From: Rotaria socialis
Taxonomy: Eukaryota
DNA length: 46,786 nucleotides
NCBI GenBank assembly: GCA_905331295.1
Contig: CAJNYD010000027.1
Span: 62,001 to 108,786 of the forward strand
Direction of reading: 5' to 3'
Shown here: positions 12,713 to 44,274 of the stretch, one piece after another
Layout: each line of letters begins with the position of its first letter
Position numbering within the stretch: position 1 is the first letter of the stretch
Notes under the pieces: model-generated
What the model was told of the DNA's origin: nothing
The model's input: the letters and a program-made list of their open reading frames with translations, nothing else
Database searches by the model: none
Position numbers and translations under genes: made by a program

Positions 12713-14251
12713 CTAACTATCAAATAAAGCACCGAAACAAGGAATATCTTTACGCCAAAGTGCATTAGTCACTTCGACAGTGAATTTTTCATTCGATACA
12801 ACAAATACAGCTTCTGATTCTGTTTTCCAAAAGTGATCTTCTACGAGTTGAACACCAGGTCGTCCACTAACTGATGTATCATGCAAAGTAAAATGTGGAT
12901 ATGTTTTTTGAACTAAGTTCCAAACATAATCTCCATAAATACGTTGATGTTGTTTTCCAATCCATAGCAGGTGTACATGAGTTGTAGGCAATGAGTCTTT
13001 AATGTAGGGCAATGCTGGTGCAATACCAGCACCTGTACATACGATTAATACTTTCCGATAAGTATGAATGCTATACATAAAACCAAGACCTTTTATTTGT
13101 CGAATCCAAATATGTTCTGGCAATTGATGCGCACGACAATTCTCAGCTAATTTCTTAGTCCAATCGCCAGCAACTGCAACTAATATTGAATGTTGATTTG
13201 TGCATGGGTCCGTGAGAGCAATAGCAAATGCATGCCATTCGTGTCCGTCTAATGATATACGTGTAGTTGAACCGTACGGATACAATGCACTAGGAAATGT
13301 AATCACAGTTAAATCTTTTGATGGTTGATTATATTGTACGACCACTTTACGAATACATATCCAAGGTAGAAAGACAATTATAACAATAACTACTAAGATA
13401 AGTACAGGTACATTGAAGAGAGTTGCTGTACTAAAAGAATCGAATTTGTCCAATTGAAGAAAGATCACATGAATAACAAGTATAATCAATGTTGTCCATC
13501 CAACATAACGATGGATGTGTTCAAATATATTATGGAAACGACGACGAACTATTGGTATAGCCGTTAATGAAAGAAATACAATGAGAAATGAAATAATACC
13601 ACCAGTTATTCGTGCGCCAAAACCATGCAGTTCGAATATAAGAGAAATTAATAGCCAGAGAAAAGCGCAGATGGCTGATGAAACATGAAGACCACCGATA
13701 CAATGTAACATTCGATTAAATTCATATTTGAAACAGGGAATCAATGCAACAATTCGATGAAGTAAAGCTATAAAGATTTCATTTCGTACTAGTACACCAA
13801 AAAGTAATTCACAAATCGAAATAGTACCGCCTGAAATATGAATGATGTGTGCAAAATAGAGTACACATAAAGCTATAGTCACTGAAATATGAATCGCAAG
13901 CCATGCTTGATGACAGGTTATAGAATCAGGAACAGTGTGTCGATACCAGGCTTTAAGCGGATGCATTTTTCTAGTTGATGATGTTATCGAGTTTTCTTCA
14001 ACAGTTATTCTAACTTCATTATTTGATGAAGCAAATACATCGTCCGACGATGAATTTTCGCTAGTTTCAGGAATTTTTTCATCCATACGGAAAGATACTA
14101 TAATATTATCAGACATAAATCGTTTTTGCTTCGTAGGCGTGGCAGGTTCATATGATATGGCACGTCGAAATTTCTCCAAATAGGATGCTTTTAGAAGAGT
14201 TGAACAGTCATGATTTTTCAACCAATTCATTCTTTTACATTCGTTTGACAT
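12713..14251 (-). CDS. Intronless multi-TM ferric-reductase-like / FNR-type oxidoreductase, resembling the C-terminal module of fungal NPS12-like adenylation proteins and bacterial homologues; HGT candidate
   Basis: 512-aa uninterrupted ORF with ~6-7 TM helices. Motifs: GGLHVS, HNIFEHIHRYVGW (heme His pair), EWHAFA (FAD), VAGDWT, VCTGAGIAP (NAD(P)H), VVSN and a terminal FGALFDS. Confidence 0.8.
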   Translation of the reverse strand: MSNECKRMNWLKNHDCSTLLKASYLEKFRRAISYEPATPTKQKRFMSDNIIVSFRMDEKIPETSENSSSDDVFASSNNEVRITVEENSITSSTRKMHPLKAWYRHTVPDSITCHQAWLAIHISVTIALCVLYFAHIIHISGGTISICELLFGVLVRNEIFIALLHRIVALIPCFKYEFNRMLHCIGGLHVSSAICAFLWLLISLIFELHGFGARITGGIISFLIVFLSLTAIPIVRRRFHNIFEHIHRYVGWTTLIILVIHVIFLQLDKFDSFSTATLFNVPVLILVVIVIIVFLPWICIRKVVVQYNQPSKDLTVITFPSALYPYGSTTRISLDGHEWHAFAIALTDPCTNQHSILVAVAGDWTKKLAENCRAHQLPEHIWIRQIKGLGFMYSIHTYRKVLIVCTGAGIAPALPYIKDSLPTTHVHLLWIGKQHQRIYGDYVWNLVQKTYPHFTLHDTSVSGRPGVQLVEDHFWKTESEAVFVVSNEKFTVEVTNALWRKDIPCFGALFDS

Positions 14252-19082: not shown

Positions 19083-20329
19083 ATGGCCAATCCAGACGCC
19101 CTATTCCATAACCTTTCGCTAACCCTTGAATCAGTTTCATCATCGTCAATGTGGAATAGGACCGAGTTCTCTGTACCAATCGATGAAAGTATCATTCTTT
19201 ATCGTCATCCAATTTTATATGGGGCAGCAATCTATGCTCTTCTACTCATCATTATTGGTACCATTGGTAACTCTAAACAGGCGGAGAATTTGCAATTGAA
19301 TAAGATCATTCTATTTAGGTAATGTCTTAACGATCGTTGTACTTCTTCGTCCTAATCTACAACGATATACAACTATGCGTTATTTAATAGCAGTTGCTGT
19401 TGCTGATCTGTGCTCATTATATTCATGGAATTTAAATCTATTCTATAAACATTTAATCAATCATTATCAAAATGACCTTGAAGATGGATCCATGATAGCC
19501 TGTCGTATTGTATCATTTATTGCATTTGTTAGTTTACAACTCTCATCATGGTATTTAACATTAGTTAGTGTTGATCGTTGTCTAAATATTTATTTTCTAC
19601 TTTGGCATCGACAAATCGGTAGAACTAGTTATTCAATCTATATTATTTTTAGTGTAACAACAGCTATTATTTTTCTTAATTTACATTTACTTTTTCTCAA
19701 TGGCTATCAACAATCTAATTGTATTCCATTTGAAAAACGTACTTGTTTTATATGTTATGCACGTTTGGAAGATCGATTCTATATATTTCCAAAATGGGAA
19801 AAAATTCATCTTGTCGTTTACAATTTTATTCCTTTTACGATCATGTTTATATCGACTTGCTTTATTATTCGTCGTTCTGCATCATCCGCAAATGCACAAA
19901 GAAGATTAACAATTGACATGAGAAAAGATTCACTTCAATGTAGTAGTCGCCGGCGTAAACAGCGACAATTAACTCGTATACTTTTGTCAGTTACATTTTT
20001 ATTTGTTTTCTTAACAACTCCAATAATGATCTACAATGTTTTCTTCCGGAACCGTTTAAGAAATCGTAAACCATTAAAATATATTGTACAGGCATTGCTA
20101 TTATGTACGCAGTATACAAGTCATGCAGTAAGTTTATTAGAATTGTTTATTTGTGATCAAAACAAATGAAAAAGTTTTTGTTTTATTTCAGATCAATTTT
20201 TTTGTTTATTGTTTCGGCGCGTCGAACTTTCGTCATGAACTAGGAGAATTTTTTTCAGATTGTACAAGAAAAAAAAACTCTATTTTAAATCAAGTGAGAA
20301 CACCTGAGCAACTTTTATAAAGACGTTAA
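19083..20329 (+). CDS. Rhodopsin-like (class A) peptide-type GPCR, 3 exons (19083-19266, 19319-20127, 20192-20329)
   Basis: TM1 GTIGN, TM2 YLIAVAVADL, TM3 C..LVSVDRC, TM5 YNFIPF, TM6 FVFLTTP, TM7 HAINFFVY, then helix 8 NFRHEL. Confidence 0.9.
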
Positions 20330-22950
20330 ATAAATTATTTATATGCAAATCAAATTCTTGATATGTATTAAAAGAAATCTTATGTAAGGTACTCATGAGA
20401 TATTTTGCACCACATGCATAAGTACAGAAGACCTTTTTCTTTCAATAGTGTGACGATGAAATCGAAGTTGTTTTTCAGTAATTATGCAGTTGCTTGAGTT
20501 TGTCATGTCTAACACAAGCAAAAATCAATTAGACGAGAAGAATAAGGGAGAATGGGGGCAACAATAACCAAAAGAGTATTGCCTATGTGATATATAATGT
20601 TGATAAACAAGTTACATTTTGCTGATTTGTTTTCAGGTCAGATGAGACTTTTGGCATACATATGAATAGTCTCCAGAGCCACGACTAAAACTGTTTCATA
20701 ATTGTTTTTCTCTGTTTGAATTGCGTAGCACTGAATTCAGTATTTATCGGCAACAGCTATTTTTTGAAATTAGTTGCCTATTGAAGATGAAAAATAGATA
20801 AACACATCAGAATCAGATACAAGGGTAATATTTTAGTGACAGCTTGTTATTATACTGAATAATGAGAAGCTAAAAATAGTCGAAATTATGAGCTCGATCC
20901 TTGGGTTTTACTTTTTTCTTTGTTTCTTTGTTAATAAAATAATGTTATATTGGTAGATTAAGATTTATTAGGGGGTAATATAAAAGGTGTCCGGAGAGAG
21001 AACAACTGTATTCATTGCGGTGTGGCTTTTGTCATGTGATCAAAATAGGATAGGACGCTTAAAAAGGGTGTGGTATGGCTGGGCCTTCTTGCTTCATTTT
21101 TTTTAAGCGAATCGACAACGAAATAAGAGAAATTGACTGATTTTGAGACAATGAAGTTTCATTATTTCTCATAATGCTCATGCAATCTATCGAGATATAA
21201 TAAGCGTTGTGGAATATACGCATAATTCATCGAAAATTTGTTTTTTTTGTATAGTACATATTCGATACATTTAATACTTTCTAGTTCTGAAGAATGATGT
21301 TTGAATATTATTAATAATAGAGCCTTCTAGCTATGATCATTTCAAATAAGACACCGAAAAGAAAGAGGTGGTATATTTTTAGTAGTAAACTAAATATTTT
21401 ACAATGATTATTTAGTAAAAAAAAACGATTGCATCGATTTTGTAAATAAAGGAAAAAAATGACCTTTTAACTGTTTCAAATAATATTAATATCACCAGTT
21501 AGATTGTGAATGCAGAGTTTCATTTTTTTTATCAAAGAAAATCATGTTTTGTCTCTGCATAAAATTTCTAGTCACATGAAAATTACATCAAGGTCAGAAT
21601 TTTAAGATAGACATTGACAAAATAATTTGTACAGGTGTTTTCCTTCAAGGATAAATTCATAAGAAAAAATCCCATTGCTAACAACTTTTATCATTGATTG
21701 ATCTATTCATCATCCAGGTATGACATAAACGAAAGTGCTTGCTGTGGAGTTATTCACGTTGGCTATATTCTAGTGCCTGGCTCGGTATTTTGATTGCTAG
21801 ATAAGAGCAATAGGCAGCTACGCTCATTAATATTATTGAAATTTGATGCGGTGTTATTTTTCTCATGAAGCCAAGCCCCTCCCTCCATGCAATTATATTC
21901 AATAACTCGTGATGCACCGAGAAAAAAATGGTATAAAGAGACTCACTAAAACGAAAAAATGCTTACAAAAGATGGGAGTTTTCTAGTTCATCGAAACTAG
22001 GACAGTTGTATTCTTTTGCAATTTATACCTATTCGACTAATCGATGTAGTGAAGACGAATCAAACAACGCTCTTTGTTATGAAAATAGAGACAAATATCA
22101 AATTTTCTGTGTTGTTTATCGAGTCGAAAAGATTTCAACACAATTATCACCCAAAACAGTAGTATACAAGATAAGTTTTTATTGATCACCAATTTCTAGA
22201 TACTGTTTTTTCCCATTTCAAACAAGTAAGCAACAACAACAACAACACAATTCTCAATTAACAAATAAATCCATCGAAACTATATATGACGTTGCTGTTC
22301 TTTCTTTTAGAATAATAGTCGAATGATTGTTCTCGATTTTTCAGCGAGAATAGGCAGCCTGCTGTCTTTAATATTCTCAAGTTAAAAAAAATTGATGTAC
22401 ACACATCTGTTGCTTCTATATCATTTCATATAGCACTCGACTAGGATGATTACATGATATTTTTAAAAGTTCAGTCAGCACTTCCAAAATGTATGGAACC
22501 GATAGTATCTTCGCATAAATAGAAATAATTGCTCGATAAGATTTTTGTATTGTCGATTTCACTTGAAAAATTTGAAGTTTATTTTTTTTGCACTATTCCC
22601 TTTATTGACAATCAGATTAGATCTCTATAAATTAGTCCCTGATATACTTACACAGAATCCTAAAATTGATGTTAACAGCAATTGAATACGATAAATTTAA
22701 ATACCTTGATCCATTGTCTTACTACCTTAATTATCGTGAGCAAAAAGAGCCTAGTGATTACGCGTTCTTCTCTCTCGTGATGTCATTAATGTAAAAAAAC
22801 AAGCAGAAAAACATCGTACGATGTACTAGTATTCATAACAAGTATAAAAGACGAGTGCAAAACGAAATAATTGCGTGTTTTTCTTTTTTTTCTTTATAGA
22901 TTCATTACTCTTCATCCTATTCACGCGACTTCATTGTTAAATACATAGAC

Positions 22951-23925
22951 ATGGAAACTCATGGTCACTCTGAATGGAAATATATTGATCGAAGAGAAAT
23001 TGGTATCACTTGTGTAGCTTTTAGTGGTGGACAACCGAGACCAGGTGTAGACTTAGGACCAGAATTTGTCTTAAAAGCGGGTCTTATTGGTCAACTGAAT
23101 GCCATGGATTTCAAAACAATATTAACCGATGGTAAAGAAATTCATGATTACAAAGAATTTTTTCCTGCATCTGATGAACCAATTGGTATAATTAAACGAC
23201 CAAGAGCAGTTGGTATCGTCAGTAAACACCTTACAGATCAAGTTTATCAACACTCAAAAGCAGGACGAATGGCATTACAAATCGGAGGCGATCATTCTAT
23301 GGGCCTTGGAACAGTTAGTGGTATTGCACGAGCTACAAAAGAACGTTTTGGTCAAGATATTAAAGTTATATGGGTTGATGCTCATGCTGACATTAATACG
23401 CCCGAAACAACGGAAACCGGAAATTTACACGGCATGCCATTATCGTTTCTAATTGGACTTGTCAAGGAAAATATTGAAGGATTAGATTGGGTTGTGCCTT
23501 GTTTAAAACCTGAAAATATTGTTTATATTGGTTTAAGAGATGTGGATAAAGCTGAAAAGCAGATTCTTAAGCAGTACAATATCAAAGCATTTTCCATGCA
23601 CGAAATTGATCGGTATGGTATTGGCGCAGTGATGAATATGACTATTGAATATTTATCCAAAGGTGATACGGCTCAATCACCTATTCATCTTTCATTTGAC
23701 ATTGATGCACTTGATCCAACTGTTGCTGCAAGCACAGGTACTCCTGTTCGAGGTGGATTAACATTTCGTGAAGGACATTATATTTGTGAAGCTCTTCATG
23801 AAACAGGACGATTGGTTGGCATTGATATAGTTGAATTAAATCCGACCATAGGTCACAGTAACGAAGATACAATTACTATCGGATGCAGCCTTATTCGAGC
23901 TGCATTGGGCGAAAGTCTTTTGTAA
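22951..23925 (+). CDS. Arginase (Mn-dependent ureohydrolase), intronless, fungal-type sequence
   Basis: 324 aa. Motifs FSGGQ..GV..GP, GGDHS, WVDAHADINTP, GNLHGMP, SFDIDALDP, TGTPVRGGL and IVELNP are present; the metal ligands are intact. Confidence 0.95.
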   Translation: METHGHSEWKYIDRREIGITCVAFSGGQPRPGVDLGPEFVLKAGLIGQLNAMDFKTILTDGKEIHDYKEFFPASDEPIGIIKRPRAVGIVSKHLTDQVYQHSKAGRMALQIGGDHSMGLGTVSGIARATKERFGQDIKVIWVDAHADINTPETTETGNLHGMPLSFLIGLVKENIEGLDWVVPCLKPENIVYIGLRDVDKAEKQILKQYNIKAFSMHEIDRYGIGAVMNMTIEYLSKGDTAQSPIHLSFDIDALDPTVAASTGTPVRGGLTFREGHYICEALHETGRLVGIDIVELNPTIGHSNEDTITIGCSLIRAALGESLL

Positions 23926-24277: not shown

Positions 24278-25941
24278 TTAAGGATTATTAACAGCTGGTG
24301 GAGCTCGAGGAATGTGGATTTGTTGTTGACCGGCTGCCGGACGTTCTACTGCGGCTTCAGGGTGAATTGGGACTTGTTGATTGTTGGGCAGTGATGGAGT
24401 TTGATGAATCGGTATTGACTAAAATAAAATAATATTCATATTGCTCTATGCAAATTATTAATAGTATATATATATATATATATATTACAGTTGATACGGG
24501 TGCCATTTTTTCAGAGAATTTATTAAAATCTTGATCAGAAAATACTGTGCTATCTTCAATTGACTAAAAAATAAATTAACATTATTAAAAATCGTTCGTT
24601 TGTTTTTATTTGCTTAAATATGAATGTCTCACCTGCCATCCTTGATCGTTTTTAGCTCCTGTTCCATTGATACCCACCAAGAATTCCTCCAATGAAAGCA
24701 TTCGATCTGCATTTTTATCGAATTCAGTGAGAACATGTTGACGCATACGATCAAGTTCTTCTTGTTTTTCAACTGGATCAGCTTCGGGTGTTCCTTCGTG
24801 TACTTTCTCAGCCTAAAATAATAATAAAAAGGAGATTTTTTTTTCAATTTTTATTCATCAATAGAATTTCTAGTCACCTCTTTCAACATAATAGCTTCAA
24901 TTTCAGCTTCATCTAAAAATCCATCAGTATTGATATCATGTAAGTTAAAAAATGATTTTGGTGAAAATTGATCGGCATCTAATTTATCAACGTCTTCCCA
25001 TACTTTCTCTATTTGATCAACACTACCAGGATGATTGACTTTTGGATGATGTTTCTTTTTTTCCAATGCTTCGGCATGTGTTGCTTCTATTTTTTGACGT
25101 TCTTCAGGGCTAAGCTTCTATAAAAGTGAAAAAAATTAAATGAGAATTTCTACTTTTGTTTTCGATTATCCTACAGCAAGTTCTGCACGACGTTCGTATT
25201 CTTTTTGCATTTCATACTCTTTAAATTCTTTTTCACGCTTTCTATCCAATTCATCAAGGTCCCTGGATGCATGACGAATTAAACGTTCCAAATCAGTTTG
25301 ACCGAATGTTTCTACGTTTTTATGATCGATATGTTGAGGAAGCAATTCTCTCGTCAATTTTCCACCTGCATCAGATCGAGCAAGTGCAGCACGTTGTTTA
25401 TCTAGATGGCAAAAATCAAATAGAGATGATAAAAAAACTGAGGCAAAAGAAGAAATTTACCACTTAAATTACGAGCTCTTTGACCGACCAATTCTCTCAA
25501 TCGAATCATTTCTCGTTGTTTTGCTTCATCAAGTTGTGTACGAATATGATGTTGAACAAGACTTAAATGTTCAGCAATGTTACCTGACTGTAAAAATATT
25601 AAAAAAATAGTAGAAAACAAAAAACCATCGATCGCATTCAATACCTTAATATCATCGAGAGATGCATTCTCAATTTTCTTTTTGAATTCAGGGTCACTTT
25701 CGAGGATTTCAACAACTTCTTTTAAATATCTTCCGTATTCAAGATTGTCTAACTATAAAAATAAAATTACAAAATAAAATCTAAATGAAGACGTGCCATT
25801 TGTTCATACCACATCGTCTGAACCTTGAGGATCTTGTGGTGTAGTTTGAGCTTTGTCTTCCGCTGGATGTTCAACAACGGGTGGCGCACCAATTATTATA
25901 ATAACAGCAAAGAAAAAGAAAATACTGATTTTCAGTTTCAT
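24278..25941 (-). CDS. NUCB: Nucleobindin (secreted/Golgi EF-hand Ca2+-binding protein), multi-exon
   Basis: Signal peptide MKLKISIFFFAVIIIG. Conserved blocks: EYGRYLKEVVEILESDPEFKKK, IRTQLDEAKQREMIRLR, HPKVNHPGSVDQIEKVWEDVD. EF-hands DINTDGFLDEAE and DKNADRMLSLEE, with a Pro/Gln-rich tail. Confidence 0.93.
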
Positions 25942-26947: not shown

Positions 26948-27633
26948 ATGATTCGCATATTTTCTATCGTTTTTATATCGTTAACATTGATCTATGCAAT
27001 TGAAAGTAGGAAATACATGAGATAAATTTAAATCTTTTTTTATAATAATTCTTTTCAGGTTACTCACTAAGAAGTGCTACCGATGTCGGTAGTAAAACGG
27101 CTAAAGCATGCGCACCTGTCAAGTGTCCAGGAAAACCGAAGTCATGCCCATATGGTTATCAGAAGAAAGATGGCTGTGAAATTTGCAGATGTAGTGATCC
27201 ATGTAATCCACCAGGAAAAGTAATTTATTCATGAATGAAAACTTCTTTTCTTTTAAACAATTCATTTTTAGCCGATACTTTGCGGAGCTAAACAACGCTG
27301 TTACGTTGATAAGAAATCTGATGGAACATTTGAAGGTCGTTGCGGTGCACCACCAAAGAAAGCCAATAAACACAAAAAGAAAGAGAAGACTACTACAAAA
27401 GGTACTATTATTATTATTATTTTGTAGAATGACTTTACATAGATCTTTTCTTTATTCTACTTGTAGATGATTGTAATTTACCAAAAATGACTGGTCCATG
27501 TCGAGCATCATTTCCACGTTTTTTCTATAATCCAGCTACTCAAAGTTGTGAATCGTTCGTCTATGGAGGATGCCGTGGAAATAAAAATAATTTTAATACG
27601 AAAGTTGAATGTGATCTAGCTTGTGTCGCTTAA
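26948..27633 (+). CDS. Secreted antistasin-like + Kunitz/BPTI protease inhibitor (paralog A), 4 exons (26948-27005, 27059-27219, 27272-27401, 27467-27633)
   Basis: Signal peptide [17 protein letters not shown]. Antistasin-like [28 protein letters not shown]. Kunitz [51 protein letters not shown]. Confidence 0.9.
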
Positions 27634-28279
27634 TCGCAATAAATGATTTATTCAAATTTTTGAAATTCAACTGTCGTCGAGCGATAAAATTGTACTATGT
27701 TTGTGTTGTTTCTTCCTATTATTCATTAGCACGATTTTGTAATACTTTTACTTTACTTCTCAATCATCATTCACTTAAACTCTAATTGTCGATTTCTTTT
27801 TTTTCATGTCACAACCAATTTAGTGTGTGTGGTTCACAGGGAACATTTTGTTTTTTGAATAATTAACAGATATAAAAATCATTGATTTTTCAAAGCTCAA
27901 CATATACATATCCTAGTTCGAATAAACAAGAAAAAAAAGCCATATGGTATATTTTGCTATTTTTACTACATTGGACCCTTTCTCATATCAACAGAATCAT
28001 CAACTATTTCTTCGTGAAGCATTACCATTTCAACAGATGTCTTTCTTCAATTGCTATCATAACAAAAATATAATACGCATTAGGAATGGTCTATCAGTTC
28101 GAGTGAATTCTTGTGTTCTATGGTCCACATTAGTCTCTGATGAAGAAAACAATTATCTACATAAATATTTGTAAATAGAAGGTATCGGATGGATAAACAG
28201 AAGCATACAATATCGGTTACTCATAGATGATAGCCGTACTGTCTATACAAACAATTACTCTAAATTTTGCACATTCTAG

Positions 28280-29367
28280 ATGTCCGGACTATTTGTTTTC
28301 ACATTTATCAGCATAGTTACAATTTATACTATCAAATGTGAGTATATAAATTAAGATTGATTATTAGAAATTCATAATTTTCATTCAGCTGCTCCGCTCG
28401 AAAAAACGATTACGGGCAAAGTAACTCATGTCGGTAAAAATACTATTGATAAGGGTGCTCATGTAAAAGTTGAACTACGCGATACTAGTTTAATGGATGC
28501 ACCATCGAAATTAATTGCATCGACAATAATAAACGACGCAAAAACATTTCCTGTTTCATATACACTTAAATATAATCCATCGGAAATTCAAGCTCATAAT
28601 ACCTATTCACTATCGGCACGAATCAGTGGACCTGGTGACAAACTTTTATATATTAATGATGCTCACACACGTGCTGACTTAGCAAGTAAAAAATCATTAA
28701 CGATTGATGTAGCCGTTATTCGAGGTACAACAATATTTCTTTCGTTTACACAATAATGCTTATTTTTGATCATTGTAGTTGGAGACAGTTCTGCTACTAT
28801 TGCAACCGAACCTGGTGATAAGAAAAAAGTATGTTCACCAGTTAAATGTCCAGGAAAACCAAAACAATGCGCTTATGGTTATCAGAAAAGCGATGGTTGC
28901 GAAATTTGCAAATGTGATGATCCATGCAATCCACTAGGAAAAGTAATAATACATTCGCTAATGAAGACTTTTTATCTCTTTAATAATTCATCTTGTTAGC
29001 CAATACGTTGCGAAGCTAAACAACGATGCTTTGCTGAAAAGAAACCTGATGGAACATTTGCAGCTCGCTGTGGTGCACCAACAACTCCAACAAAAAAACC
29101 TCATGAACACAAACCAATCAAGAATCTTTCAAAGCGTAATTACAGTTTTTTTTCAAAAGTATTCTTAACATATTCATATGCTGTTTTTTCTTCTTTGTAG
29201 TAACCTGTCTCCTGCCAAAAGATACTGGTTTTTGTCAGGCACATATGCCACGTTTTCATTACAATTCAGCCACGAAAACCTGTGAAACATTCACGTATGG
29301 AGGATGTCAAGGCAATAAAAATAATTTTCATACAAAAGTCGAATGTGAAAAAGCTTGCAAAGCCTAA
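28280..29367 (+). CDS. Secreted YbaY/YscW-like + antistasin-like + Kunitz protein (paralog B), 5 exons (28280-28338, 28389-28724, 28779-28942, 29000-29135, 29201-29367)
   Basis: Signal peptide, then exon 2 ITGKVT..GAHVKVELRDTSLMDAPSKLIA..FPVSYTLKYNPSEI....YSLSARI....KLLYIND, which is the bacterial YbaY lipoprotein pattern. This is followed by [28 protein letters not shown] and Kunitz CLLPKDTGFCQAHMPRFHYNSATKTCETFTYGGCQGNKNNF. Confidence 0.88.
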
Positions 29368-29529
29368 TTTATCTTCAGTCCATACAAGCTATTCAATTTA
29401 TTACTCAAGCGGCTGGACCAAATTTACCCATTAGATTTTAGTTAACTTCTTTGCTAAATAATGTAGTATTTTTAGTTTGTATAAAATGAAATATATCACC
29501 GTGCTCGTATAGCTGGATAAATTCTTTGT

Positions 29530-29650: not shown

Positions 29651-29877
29651 AAGATTGTACTTCACAGGATCATTTTCTGTAGTACATATCGACAAAACAC
29701 CCATAGCCAAAGAAGACCCAAACAACCCACGATGACGAGTGGCAGTGGTTCTTCTTGAGCGTGAAGTAGGATGGGGCTGCTCTCTTCTCGAGAGCTCGGC
29801 CTGCTTCCTTTGATGATCGCACCTTGTTGTGTCCTCGTGATACGGCAAGGAGGGAAGCGACCACATTCAGAGTGGTT
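29651..29877 (+). ncRNA. U3: U3 snoRNA, copy 1
   Basis: 5' AAGATTGTACTT (box A'), CAGGATCATTT (box A, complementary to 18S 5' UGAUCCUG), CCACGATGACGA (box C'), GAGCGTGAAG (box B), TGATGA (box C) and TCAGAGTGGT (variant box D plus terminal stem with CCAC). Length ~226 nt. Confidence 0.92.
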
Positions 29878-30570: not shown

Positions 30571-30797
30571 AAGATTGTACTTCACAGGATCATTTTCTGT
30601 AGTACATATCGACAAAACACCCATAGCCAAAGAAGACCCAAACAACCCACGATGACGAGTGGCAGTGGTTCTTCTTGAGCGTGAAGTAGGATGGGGCTGC
30701 TCTCTTCTCGAGAGCTCGGCCTGCTTCCTTTGATGATCGCACCTTGTTGTGTCCTCGTGACACGGCAAGGAGGGAAGCGACCACATTCAGAGTGGTT
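30571..30797 (+). ncRNA. U3: U3 snoRNA, copy 2
   Basis: Same boxes, 920 bp downstream of copy 1. One substitution was seen (GAT to GAC in the 3' hairpin). Confidence 0.92.
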
Positions 30798-32466: not shown

Positions 32467-34175
32467 TTATTGATTTATTCCAAGCAATCGATATAATTCT
32501 GCAGTTTTTTCATCAGTTACGTTAATTCCACCGGCAACTAATACTATACCATTAAGTAATGCGACAGCTGCGTGTTCAGATCGTGGCACATTCATGCTCC
32601 TAGTAATACTCCAAGTTCCGGTTAATGGATCATGCAATTCGGTACTATTGAGACCACCACCACCACCACCACCTGTAACTAACACTTTTCCATGTGTTAA
32701 AATAGTTGCTGTATGTAACTATCGCGCGTCGGCCATGCTACCAGTCATATTCTACGTGCCTGTCGATGGATCATATCATTCAGCAGTATCCTGGAGGAGA
32801 GTGCCTAATCCACCGCAAACAAAAACTCTACCGTTTCTTAGTAAGCTAGCTGTAAAACCGCTTCGTTCGTATGCCATATTATTAATAGCTGTTCAATTAC
32901 CTGTTGTTGAATTATAGGACTCAACAGCATTCATATTAGAACTATGATTCCATCCACCGATCACTATTACGTTTTCATTGGTTAATACGGCTGCAGCATG
33001 ATTTTCTCGGGCATGCTGCATGTTTGGTGTCGCCATCCAGGTTCCTGTTGATGGATCATATAATTCAGCAGTATTTAGGGTAATGCTACCATTAGCTCCG
33101 CCTGTGACTAATACATTACTATTTCCTAGCAACGATGCTGTTGGTCCCCGTCGTGCATAACTCATACTACCAATATAAAATCATCCTAGAAGAAATATTT
33201 TAATGCATTCAATTTGAAAATTGATCGATATCATTAAACCATTTTTGATAGCATAAAATACAAAACGCTTTCTTATTCTACATACGAAAACTACTGTAAA
33301 CGATGTTTACTGGTAAAAATTTACAATTCTATTGAAAAAAGTTATTTACGAAGTTATGAAGATCGAACACCTATTTTTCATCTTCACATTCATATTCGAT
33401 TAGCTTTGAATTCTTTACACTGCTCTGACTATTTTACTCATTAAACTGTGAAATCGATTGGTAATGTTAAATGAAAATTTTCTCTTAAAAAAAAGACTAC
33501 AACCAATTATTTACTCAACAGATAAAAATCTCGTATTAAAATTCGATGTTTGATCTAATAATCTGAAACAATGATTTCTCGTAGAACTCAATAGATTTAT
33601 ATGAACACACTGCAAGTTATTTTTGTTGAAGAATATGTTGAAATTGGATTTGTCTATACTGTGATAAAAGCTATTCGATCTTAAAGTTGTTACAGCAAAT
33701 CAAATATTTATTGGAATCAAGAAAAAATATTTTAGCTTCTGAGCACTTGCAAGCGACAACGGCAAACACATGAATTAACGATACACACAGAATTATTTGT
33801 TGCACAAGCATTTGTAATATTGTTACATGGTTCCAGAATCGAACATAGAATACCAGGTCCACAATAGCTGACTTTGTTGAGTTGTACGATAGTCGAAGCA
33901 AGGTGTTGACAATGACAGACAACTGATCATGTTACCCGAAATTGAGCGACATTGTTGTAAAGAACAGTTTGATATTGAATTTCATACAGAATTAGCTGAC
34001 TGAGAAAATGTGAACTCTATAGAGCCACTGTTGTCATTGCAAGAATAAATCGGTGGTGCTGTCGACTGACCTAAGAGTTGGCATCGGTAAAAAAATTTAA
34101 ATAAAAAGGAATAAGTTAGTATACCTTTTACACAAGAGAAAATGATGCTAAAAAAAGCGGAAGTAGAAAGCGCAT
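32467..34175 (-). pseudogene. Pseudogene of a secreted Cys-rich + Kelch/galactose-oxidase-type beta-propeller protein
   Basis: Kelch repeats (ASLLGNSNVLVTGG..AELYDPSTGTW) run in one frame over 33165-32467 with four in-frame stops. An upstream Cys-rich exon at ~33740-34075 (PCFDYRTT/YCGPGILCSILEPCNNITNAC..VCIVNSC) has a stop and a frameshift. The signal-peptide exon MRFLLPLFLASFSLV*K starts at 34175. Confidence 0.8.
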
Positions 34176-35584: not shown

Positions 35585-35811
35585 AAGATTGTACTTCACA
35601 GGATCATTTTCTGTAGTACATATCGACAAAACACCCATAGCCAAAGAAGACCCAAACAACCCACGATGACGAGTGGCAGTGGTTCTTCTTGAGCGTGAAG
35701 TAGGATGGGGCTGCTCTCTTCTCGAGAGCTCGGCCTGCTTCCTTTGATGATCGCACCTTGTTGTGTCCTCGTGATACGGCAAGGAGGGAAGCGACCACAT
35801 TCAGAGTGGTT
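35585..35811 (+). ncRNA. U3: U3 snoRNA, copy 3
   Basis: Same boxes; the transcribed region appears identical to copy 1. Confidence 0.92.
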
Positions 35812-43337: not shown

Positions 43338-44274
43338 TTAGCTACTACAGCATCCATTTCGTCGTGGTTGAACACTAGGTAATACATCAATCGATTGATT
43401 CTGATGTGCATTTGCATTGTTGGGACCAGATTTTACTCCATCCCATCTTTAAGAAAAGCGTAATATTAAACTCATAGTAGAAACAAAAATAAAATTCTTA
43501 CCCATTTTGTACATGTATACGTCCTTCAATTAACATATCGTAGATCTCTCGTGCAATAAGTGCAAATGCTTCTTGAACATACAGCGACGATTTTGATGAT
43601 GTTTCAATAAAGGACACATTATGAAAATCAGCAAACGCTTTTCCTTCTTCAGTTGTTACCTAAGAGAATAATCGATTAAATAATCATTTTATCTTTTTTA
43701 CAAACTAACTTGTCGTTCAGACTCTCGATCAATTTTAGTACCAACAAGAAGAAAGACACTTTGATACGGTTGAATTTGCGCACGAGCTTCATTCAACCAA
43801 CTTGTGACGTGTGTAAAACTAACGTAATTTGTTGTATCATATATCAAAAGAACACCCACTGAATTCCGATAATATGCACGTGTGATACTTCTATAAAAAG
43901 AAAAGATTGTTTTCGTATGATATTATCTTTTTCGAAAATTGTTTACTTGAATCGTTCTTGACCAGCTGTATCCCATAATTGTAATTTTACTTTAACACCA
44001 GGTTTAACTTCAATAATACGCACATTGAAATCAACACCAACTGTTGGATCCTATTTCAATAGATAGAATTTTAATATTTCAATAAATAGAAACGTTGATC
44101 TTACTGGATCTTGAGAAAAGACTCCATCGCAAAATTTGCGTAGTAGTGATGACTGTAAAAAGAAATAGATTTTTTTTAATCTGATGATTTATTATATTTA
44201 TTTACCTTTCCGACAGTTGAATCACCGACAACAATTAATCGAAATTGATAATCATAACTGTACATACTATCCAT
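43338..44274 (-). CDS. RAB39: Rab39-family small GTPase, multi-exon
   Basis: [67 protein letters not shown] and WDGVKSG. C-terminal prenylation site GCCSS*. Confidence 0.92.

Follow-up and report, generated by a model that had tools for sequence, protein, structure and literature searches.

The window analysed here, a stretch of 46,786 nucleotides from the freshwater rotifer Rotaria socialis (contig CAJNYD010000027.1, positions 62,001 to 108,786), contains a tandem pair of genes, A and B, of which the second raises the question of how a domain of the mostly bacterial YscW/YbaY family came to occupy an exon of its own in a gene for a predicted secreted protease inhibitor, and what it might do there. 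The account that we favour, with a probability of roughly 0.55, is that gene B is a spliced gene carrying an old bacterial domain on an antistasin-Kunitz inhibitor, with the YscW domain serving as a binding head. The pair and the ordinary eukaryotic genes around it are as follows.

26948-27633, + strand: gene A, tandem paralogue without the YscW domain, four exons, 171 aa
28280-28337, + strand: gene B exon 1, predicted signal peptide (helix 3-19 in the model), phase-1 donor
28389-28724, + strand: gene B exon 2, complete YscW/YbaY-like domain (PF09619), 336 nt, phase 1-1
28779-28942, + strand: gene B exon 3, linker followed by an antistasin repeat (Pfam match on the exon alone), phase 1-0
29000-29135, + strand: gene B exon 4, small cysteine-rich hairpin and basic linker, phase 0-1
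29201-29367, + strand: gene B exon 5, Kunitz domain with six cysteines (PF00014)
2869-3165, + strand: SH3 protein, ordinary eukaryotic neighbour
8904-9122, - strand: calcineurin-like phosphatase, ordinary eukaryotic neighbour
19300-20169, + strand: rhodopsin-type GPCR, ordinary eukaryotic neighbour
24851-25456, - strand: nucleobindin-like gene, ordinary eukaryotic neighbour
32467-33180, - strand: Kelch repeats, ordinary eukaryotic neighbour
43698-43922, - strand: Ras-family GTPase, ordinary eukaryotic neighbour

Gene A (26948-27633) and gene B (28280-29367) lie in AT-rich DNA and have short introns, all with GT..AG boundaries. The five exons of gene B are joined through introns of phases 1, 1, 0 and 1 and form an open frame of 286 aa; the four exons of gene A (26948-27005, 27059-27219, 27272-27401 and 27467-27633) are joined through phases 1, 0 and 1. 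The gene B product is identical in 286 of 286 residues to a protein of R. socialis (P0164), which identifies the host as a bdelloid rotifer. Exon 1 has no lipobox cysteine, and exon 4 (29000-29135) gave no Pfam match. The antistasin repeat (PF02822, cut-off 21.2 bits) scores 24.3 bits on exon 3 alone and 19.4 bits in the whole protein, and the Kunitz domain covers positions 1-53 of 53 of its profile (E 1.4e-20). Both domains are ordinary in animals. The 336-nt exon with phase-1 introns on both sides and a complete YbaY-like domain, as described in the first-pass annotation, is confirmed by the gene models and by the Pfam match (E 1.7e-19).

Several other features of the window were recorded. 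Three U3 snoRNA genes (29651-29876, 30571-30796 and 35585-35810, + strand; Rfam RF00012, 128-130 bits) lie inside 300-nt repeats that are 97-98% identical, the first of which starts right after the poly(A) site of gene B. An uninterrupted arginase frame (22900-23925, + strand; PF00491, E 4e-73) lies among intron-rich genes and is possibly a foreign gene. An uninterrupted frame of 512 aa (12713-14251, - strand) contains hydrophobic segments, matches a ferric-reductase NAD-binding domain weakly (E 0.016) and is possibly a foreign oxidoreductase.

Splice joints were scored on assembled contigs of eight runs from five studies, some of the runs being from a close relative with a few per cent of sequence divergence. 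For runs without an RNA label in their records, spliced and polyadenylated contigs constitute the evidence of transcription. The joint from the signal exon to the YscW exon (28337>28389) was present in six of the eight runs and the joint from the YscW exon to the antistasin exon (28724>28779) in seven, and all five exons of gene B occurred together on single contigs (X2, X3). A joint skipping the YscW exon was found in 0/8 runs, as scored on contigs, which omit rare forms, so that minor skipping could escape. The exon is thus spliced to the downstream exons, and the secreted chimeric inhibitor proposed earlier exists as an mRNA, its secretion being predicted. Gene A is expressed without the YscW domain. 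Transcripts of both genes begin with a common non-genomic 5' leader (the longest contig end has 21 letters of it and a shared AG), which in gene B is trans-spliced at the AG immediately 5' of the ATG. A bdelloid spliced leader of 23 nt has been reported (PMC1925144), with which the leader seen here agrees as judged by length alone. Poly(A) sites are at 27665 for gene A and near 29515 for gene B; since each gene has its own leader and its own poly(A) site, the two are separate mRNAs. Contamination as the source of the YscW exon is ruled out by the introns, the spliced leader and the host-like GC3, the exon being embedded in host DNA with a poly(A) site and intron-broken eukaryotic neighbours.

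The identity of the domain, for which a search with the Pfam profile had been proposed, is clear: the exon product matches PF09619 (YscW) with 70.6 bits (E 1.7e-19, cut-off 22.6) over positions 4-95 of 107 of the profile; NCBIfam gave no match. An AlphaFold2 model of the domain (pLDDT 91.9) has seven strands in a pilotin-type beta-sandwich. The best fold match was 5WEC (TM 0.81-0.84, E 2e-10; Z 15.0, rmsd 2.5, 107 residues aligned), followed by 2YJL (Z 11.3) and then by a chain at 8.2; these two entries lead both fold searches. 5WEC, with 28-31% identity, is also the sole sequence match in the PDB (E 3.8e-10). The full-length model of a relative, P0005 (mean pLDDT 56), is of low confidence outside the YscW domain and therefore uninformative on domain packing.

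The first 131 residues of the gene B product contain no cysteine and thus none for lipid anchoring. A lipobox pattern was absent from every bdelloid-type protein checked, the same pattern also having missed two of three bacterial-type controls. The GC3 of the YscW exon is 0.20, compared with 0.21-0.23 in the tails and a neighbouring gene, and its dN/dS is 0.22-0.66 across all 28 pairs of eight sequences (the window and loci L001-L007). Host-like GC3 and dN/dS below 1 indicate that the exon is old, assimilated and constrained. A D-x-S-x-x-D motif, placed by the model in the loop between strands 24-31 and 40-48, is present in 18 of 19 Kunitz-type, 15 of 16 inhibitor I13-type (see below) and 45 of 50 bacterial domains, counts that run high because the motif was the criterion for fetching loci.

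Homologues of the domain were sought among 1.84 billion representatives, which yielded 1282 matches, 150 of them listed; taxon names were looked up for 30 proteins. The architecture of gene B recurs in R. magnacalcarata, R. sordida and R. sp. Silwood1, and in more divergent forms in P0026, P0035, P0046, P0073 and P0086. A second architecture among the matches listed consists of signal peptide, YscW domain and potato inhibitor I (I13; PF00280) and was found in R. sp. Silwood1, where the protein has three YscW copies, R. sordida and Didymodactylos carnosus; Didymodactylos is an early branch among bdelloids. P0056 has three tandem YscW copies. Eighty metagenome loci included seven of the Kunitz type and 18 of the I13 type; these are AT-rich, have short introns and are called bdelloid-like. 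No other YscW-bearing entry among 235 proteins and 160 loci had an I13 or Kunitz tail. The domain is therefore a bdelloid family that heads two unrelated inhibitor types and, across the two, is retained in at least five named bdelloid species, so that the modular use suggested for gene B extends to a second inhibitor family. The names from the 30 look-ups among the matches listed included no Adineta and no animal outside the bdelloids.

Five R. sordida and R. sp. Silwood1 models (P0006, P0170, P0171, P0185, P0232) appear to fuse neighbouring genes, as A with B, as YscW-I13 with a B-box gene, or as B with an unrelated tail. The three R. sordida models that present A and B as one protein (P0006, P0170, P0171) are probably fused by annotation and were left out, because separate proteins (P0172, P0175) exist and the two genes of the window have separate leaders and tails.

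Outside the bdelloids, YscW domains occur in tandem in four fungi, Gryganskiella, Gamsiella, Mortierella and Lunasporangiospora (P0088, P0098, P0115, P0151), which we take to be members of the family Mortierellaceae. Five eukaryote-like proteins were present among the matches listed: P0031, P0090, P0077 and P0145 have one to three YscW domains, two of them with signal-like N-termini and without a lipobox, and P0043 (ENA) has a C-terminal piece of a multicopper oxidase (laccase-type) followed by three YscW domains, a third eukaryote-like architecture. Presumed bacterial proteins carry the domain as repeats or in fusion with META, fasciclin, MliC or an alpha-2-macroglobulin domain.

As to where the domain came from, 543 domains were reduced to 104 by dereplication (including the 50 best-scoring presumed-bacterial ones) and to 70 in a careful tree, 'bacterial' being a default label with only some rows named. 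A quick tree united all bdelloid-type and eukaryote-like rows at 95, which the careful tree did not. The latter supports the Kunitz-type (98/96), I13-type (85/84) and fungal (100/99) groups, leaves the deep forks open, and contains, among its 70 domains, no supported bacterial sister group or donor. In AU tests, neither all eukaryotic-type rows as one clade (p 0.60), nor the bdelloids only (p 0.64), nor bdelloids plus eukaryote-like rows (p 0.58) were rejected, and all three constrained trees scored above the free tree, which shows the tree search to be unreliable at depth. The window domain matches its best presumed-bacterial relative (44%, 85.9 bits) about as well as the I13-type domains (44%, 84.7 bits), and its Atlas neighbours are mostly bacterial YscW clusters. 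The foreign-gene content of Rotaria is known to be high (PMC5916493). It is this content, the patchy distribution and the bacterial bulk of the family, not the tree, that make an old transfer from bacteria the probable origin. Of the horizontal acquisition inferred in the first-pass annotation, the mostly bacterial, patchily distributed family speaks in favour; the tree names no donor and leaves a single eukaryotic clade standing.

An alternative to a direct bacteria-to-rotifer transfer, unlikely in our judgement, is inheritance of the domain from old eukaryotic ancestors, or its arrival through another eukaryote such as a fungus. Such a route would be in keeping with the domain in four fungi and five eukaryote-like proteins, one of them laccase-fused, with the AU result for a single eukaryotic clade, and with 150 of 1282 matches having been listed, so that other animals may carry it. 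However, the names returned for the matches listed include no animal outside the bdelloids, the fungal domains score lower against the window (60.1 bits) than bacterial ones do and are placed among bacterial ones by each of the three free trees, and both fungal proteins checked (2/2) start without a signal-like stretch. The fungal clade of tandem domains is possibly an independent transfer. The free trees place P0031, P0090, P0077 and P0145 close to the bdelloid groups, at positions that are not firmly supported; should they derive from monogonont rotifers or other animals, the date of the bacterial acquisition that we prefer would move.

Once in the genome, the exon could have spread as a mobile unit, a possibility that bears on the difference between genes A and B. 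Intron phases at other loci were predicted from DNA, with 12 of the 18 I13-type loci examined. Among Kunitz-type loci the 3' intron is of phase 1 in 7/7 and the 5' intron in 6/6 with the signal exon on the contig, the seventh being cut off at the 5' side with a phase-1 acceptor. Among I13-type loci a 5' phase-1 intron is present in eight of 12 and absent in four; the 1-1 state was found in seven (three rebuilt to an open frame, four by donor only), L010 is ambiguous, and three lack any flanking intron (L035, L056, L038). L035 and L056, which are near-copies, are genomic and have an intron within the I13 part; L038 is possibly a transcript. Compared with Kunitz-type loci, I13-type loci have their 3' intron some two codons further downstream. 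The 1-1 state is thus common to both inhibitor families, yet not universal. In every single-gene model of either family the YscW domain stands directly behind the signal peptide; this, together with the four I13-type loci without a 5' intron, suggests that the reused unit may be 'signal plus YscW' and not a free-standing symmetric exon. In the survey of architectures and phases, six Kunitz-type and seven I13-type loci agree with the modular picture, and the four without a 5' intron depart from it.

The A-B tandem recurs in locus L004 and probably in R. sordida (P0172, P0175). In L004 the YscW-less gene keeps the acceptor and the first 17 nt of the YscW exon: the start of its exon 2 matches the YscW exon start of all eight B genes at 9-14 of 17 nt, but the antistasin exon start of the same genes (8/8) at only 4-5 of 17. 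With the intron end included in the alignment, this scar reaches z 4.4-5.3 against L001, L004 and L007, only 1.9 against gene B of the window, and below 1 against the antistasin acceptor. In gene A of the window the scar is weak and mixed (z 0.5-2.6) and the intron end is nearer to the antistasin acceptor (8-12/16 versus 6-8/16); in R. sordida, exon 2 of A starts with a similar P-I dipeptide. The signal exons of the window A and L004 A group at 92/94 (58 columns), which suggests that the two genes are orthologous.

The tails of the A genes are 62-79% like Rotaria-type B tails, other YscW-bearing tails 42-62%, so that YscW-bearing tails are more diverse than the distance from A to B; all searches used YscW as the query, which places old YscW-less relatives outside the sample. 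A test on 16 rows (L003 excluded, L002 and L006 truncated) rejected a single clade of the three A tails (p 0.007). This conflicts with the signal-exon tree, and gene conversion or repeated loss is needed to reconcile the two. On the strength of the L004 scar, the grouping of the A-type signal exons and the greater diversity of YscW-bearing tails, gene A most probably lost the domain after tandem duplication by an internal deletion. Since L004 A keeps the start of the YscW exon, the deletion would have begun a few codons into the exon and was probably not a clean exon excision.

The opposite direction, in which a mobile 1-1 module was inserted by shuffling into an A-like signal-antistasin-Kunitz gene, appears quite improbable. 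It would account for the phase 1-1 state here, in 6 of 7 Kunitz-type loci (both sides visible) and in 7 of 12 I13-type loci, for the coincidence of exon ends with domain ends, for the tandem copies of P0056, and for antistasin and Kunitz domains being ordinary in animals. Against it stand the scar in L004 A and the P-I dipeptide in R. sordida A, the diversity among YscW-bearing tails, the constant position of the domain after the signal peptide, the I13-type loci without a 5' intron (4/12) or without both (3/12), the shift of the 3' intron between families, and the fact that phase-1 introns behind signal peptides are common anyway. The description of gene A as the same exon chain minus one therefore needs amending: A has no YscW domain, but the difference is probably not one of a clean exon, and the reading of the pair as a 1-1 exon shuffled in or out is not supported, L004 A keeping the YscW exon start. 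On the direction, which had been left open, loss in A is favoured by that scar and the signal exons, the scar of the window A being weak.

The history that combines bacterial origin with loss in A would run as follows. A YbaY-like lipoprotein gene would have entered the genome at or before the bdelloid stem and shed its lipid anchor to become a secreted head of signal peptide plus YscW domain, which may then have been joined to two different inhibitor tails through a phase-1 intron; after the tandem duplication, paralogue A would have lost the domain by the deletion described above.

As regards function, the protein would be secreted by virtue of its predicted signal peptide, and the Kunitz domain of B is predicted to inhibit serine proteases, its loop presumably blocking trypsin- or chymotrypsin-like enzymes. 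The P1 residue is Gln in B and Arg in A, so that their protease targets likely differ; R. magnacalcarata B has Leu at this position, and Arg or Lys predominates among homologues. The region of the D-x-S-x-x-D loop in the beta-sandwich may bind a ligand, be it a microbial envelope, mucus or the protease, and the YscW head would hold the inhibitor on that surface or partner. That the domain is a non-lipidated binding head which positions the inhibitor is a prediction to which we give even odds, based on the missing anchor, the missing secretin (to our knowledge animals have none of their own), the loop kept across groups and the retention with two unrelated inhibitors. The bolder version, that bdelloids domesticated a pilotin-like domain and use it to home two inhibitors onto microbial envelopes or proteases, with the loop as the ancestral ligand site, is speculative and rather unlikely; if true, the rotifer fusions would reveal what the bacterial YbaY family binds. 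By analogy, a defence role for gene B is possible. Foreign genes are deployed against a fungus in PMC11258130, the accessible portion of which mentions neither the YscW family nor protease inhibitors.

Two other roles for the domain seem improbable. It might itself be a unit that binds or inhibits proteases through the exposed loop, the proteins then being multi-headed inhibitors, as the fusion to two unrelated inhibitor families and, in presumed bacteria, to MliC, a lysozyme inhibitor (in 6 of the 105 proteins scanned), and once to the alpha-2-macroglobulin domain MG10 could imply. The loop position of the motif and the Met before its first Asp in 17 of 19 Kunitz-type domains also fit such a site, but that residue is Ala in 11 of 16 I13-type domains and in 34 of 50 bacterial ones, which suits a conserved reactive site poorly; moreover, the solved homologues are titled secretin pilot proteins, and many bacterial proteins consist of YscW repeats or carry META only. 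Alternatively, the domain might be a passive folding, solubility or spacer module without a specific ligand, in line with the expression of A without it, a dN/dS that is only moderately low (up to 0.66) and a loop motif that has decayed in P0086; its retention in two families and at least five named bdelloid species, its three-fold amplification in P0056 and the near-invariant acids of the surface loop (in counts inflated by motif-based fetching) argue otherwise.

No account of an animal YscW domain was found in the literature within reach, subscription journals and several supplements being out of reach, and a search for pilotins with rotifers, judged mostly by title, gave nothing relevant. 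The readable supplements of PMC11258130 (all but two files) gave neither a YscW nor a Kunitz match. The foreign-gene table of PMC4632278 lists 22 entries as 'lipoprotein'; some of them may be YscW genes, the table giving no sequences that could be matched to gene B. The automatic database labels of these proteins (NCBI, UniRef) read 'BPTI/Kunitz inhibitor domain-containing' or 'unnamed'. Foreign genes are common in bdelloids, and screens for whole-gene transfers would tend to miss the Kunitz-type gene, presumably because its animal domains dominate the score.

Among known systems, the closest to the head of gene B are the bacterial pilotins of the YscW/YbaY family, 5WEC (the 'alternative pilotin' of the V. 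cholerae type II system) and 2YJL (P. aeruginosa T3SS), which have the same seven-strand sandwich; the D-x-S-x-x-D loop is shared with the YbaY-like branch. Unlike these, gene B lacks a lipobox and has an animal signal exon, introns, a spliced leader and animal-type inhibitors. Pilotin function is treated in 10.1101/2022.02.14.480308; YbaY itself was called poorly characterized in 2022 (PMC9491580), and PMC11873228, in the part available, uses only the YbaY promoter. The repeated pairing with inhibitors is thus a testable lead for YbaY.

Chimeras of bacterial and eukaryotic parts are already known from bdelloids in N4CMT (PMC8885841), which likewise joins a bacterial-type to a eukaryotic domain, has conserved introns and is old in the group. 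N4CMT is a single nuclear enzyme of tested activity with introns at five conserved positions, whereas the domain of gene B is small, non-enzymic, confined to one exon, predicted to be secreted, combined with two partners and lost in a paralogue. With invertebrate antistasin/Kunitz (BPTI) inhibitors, gene B shares the signal peptide, the antistasin repeat, the six-cysteine Kunitz domain and a variable P1, to which it adds the N-terminal YscW head.

Extracellular exon modules of class 1-1 are known in animals, and the YscW domain resembles them in lying between phase-1 introns that are used in the mRNA and in occurring in more than one architecture. It differs in always coming first after the signal peptide and in lacking flanking introns at some loci, and the sole presence/absence pair examined resembles an internal deletion. 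The present case contributes a small bacterial-type domain in its own exon, heading two unrelated families of secreted inhibitors, with a deletion paralogue adjoining; genes A and B thereby offer a natural comparison of an inhibitor with and without its YscW domain.
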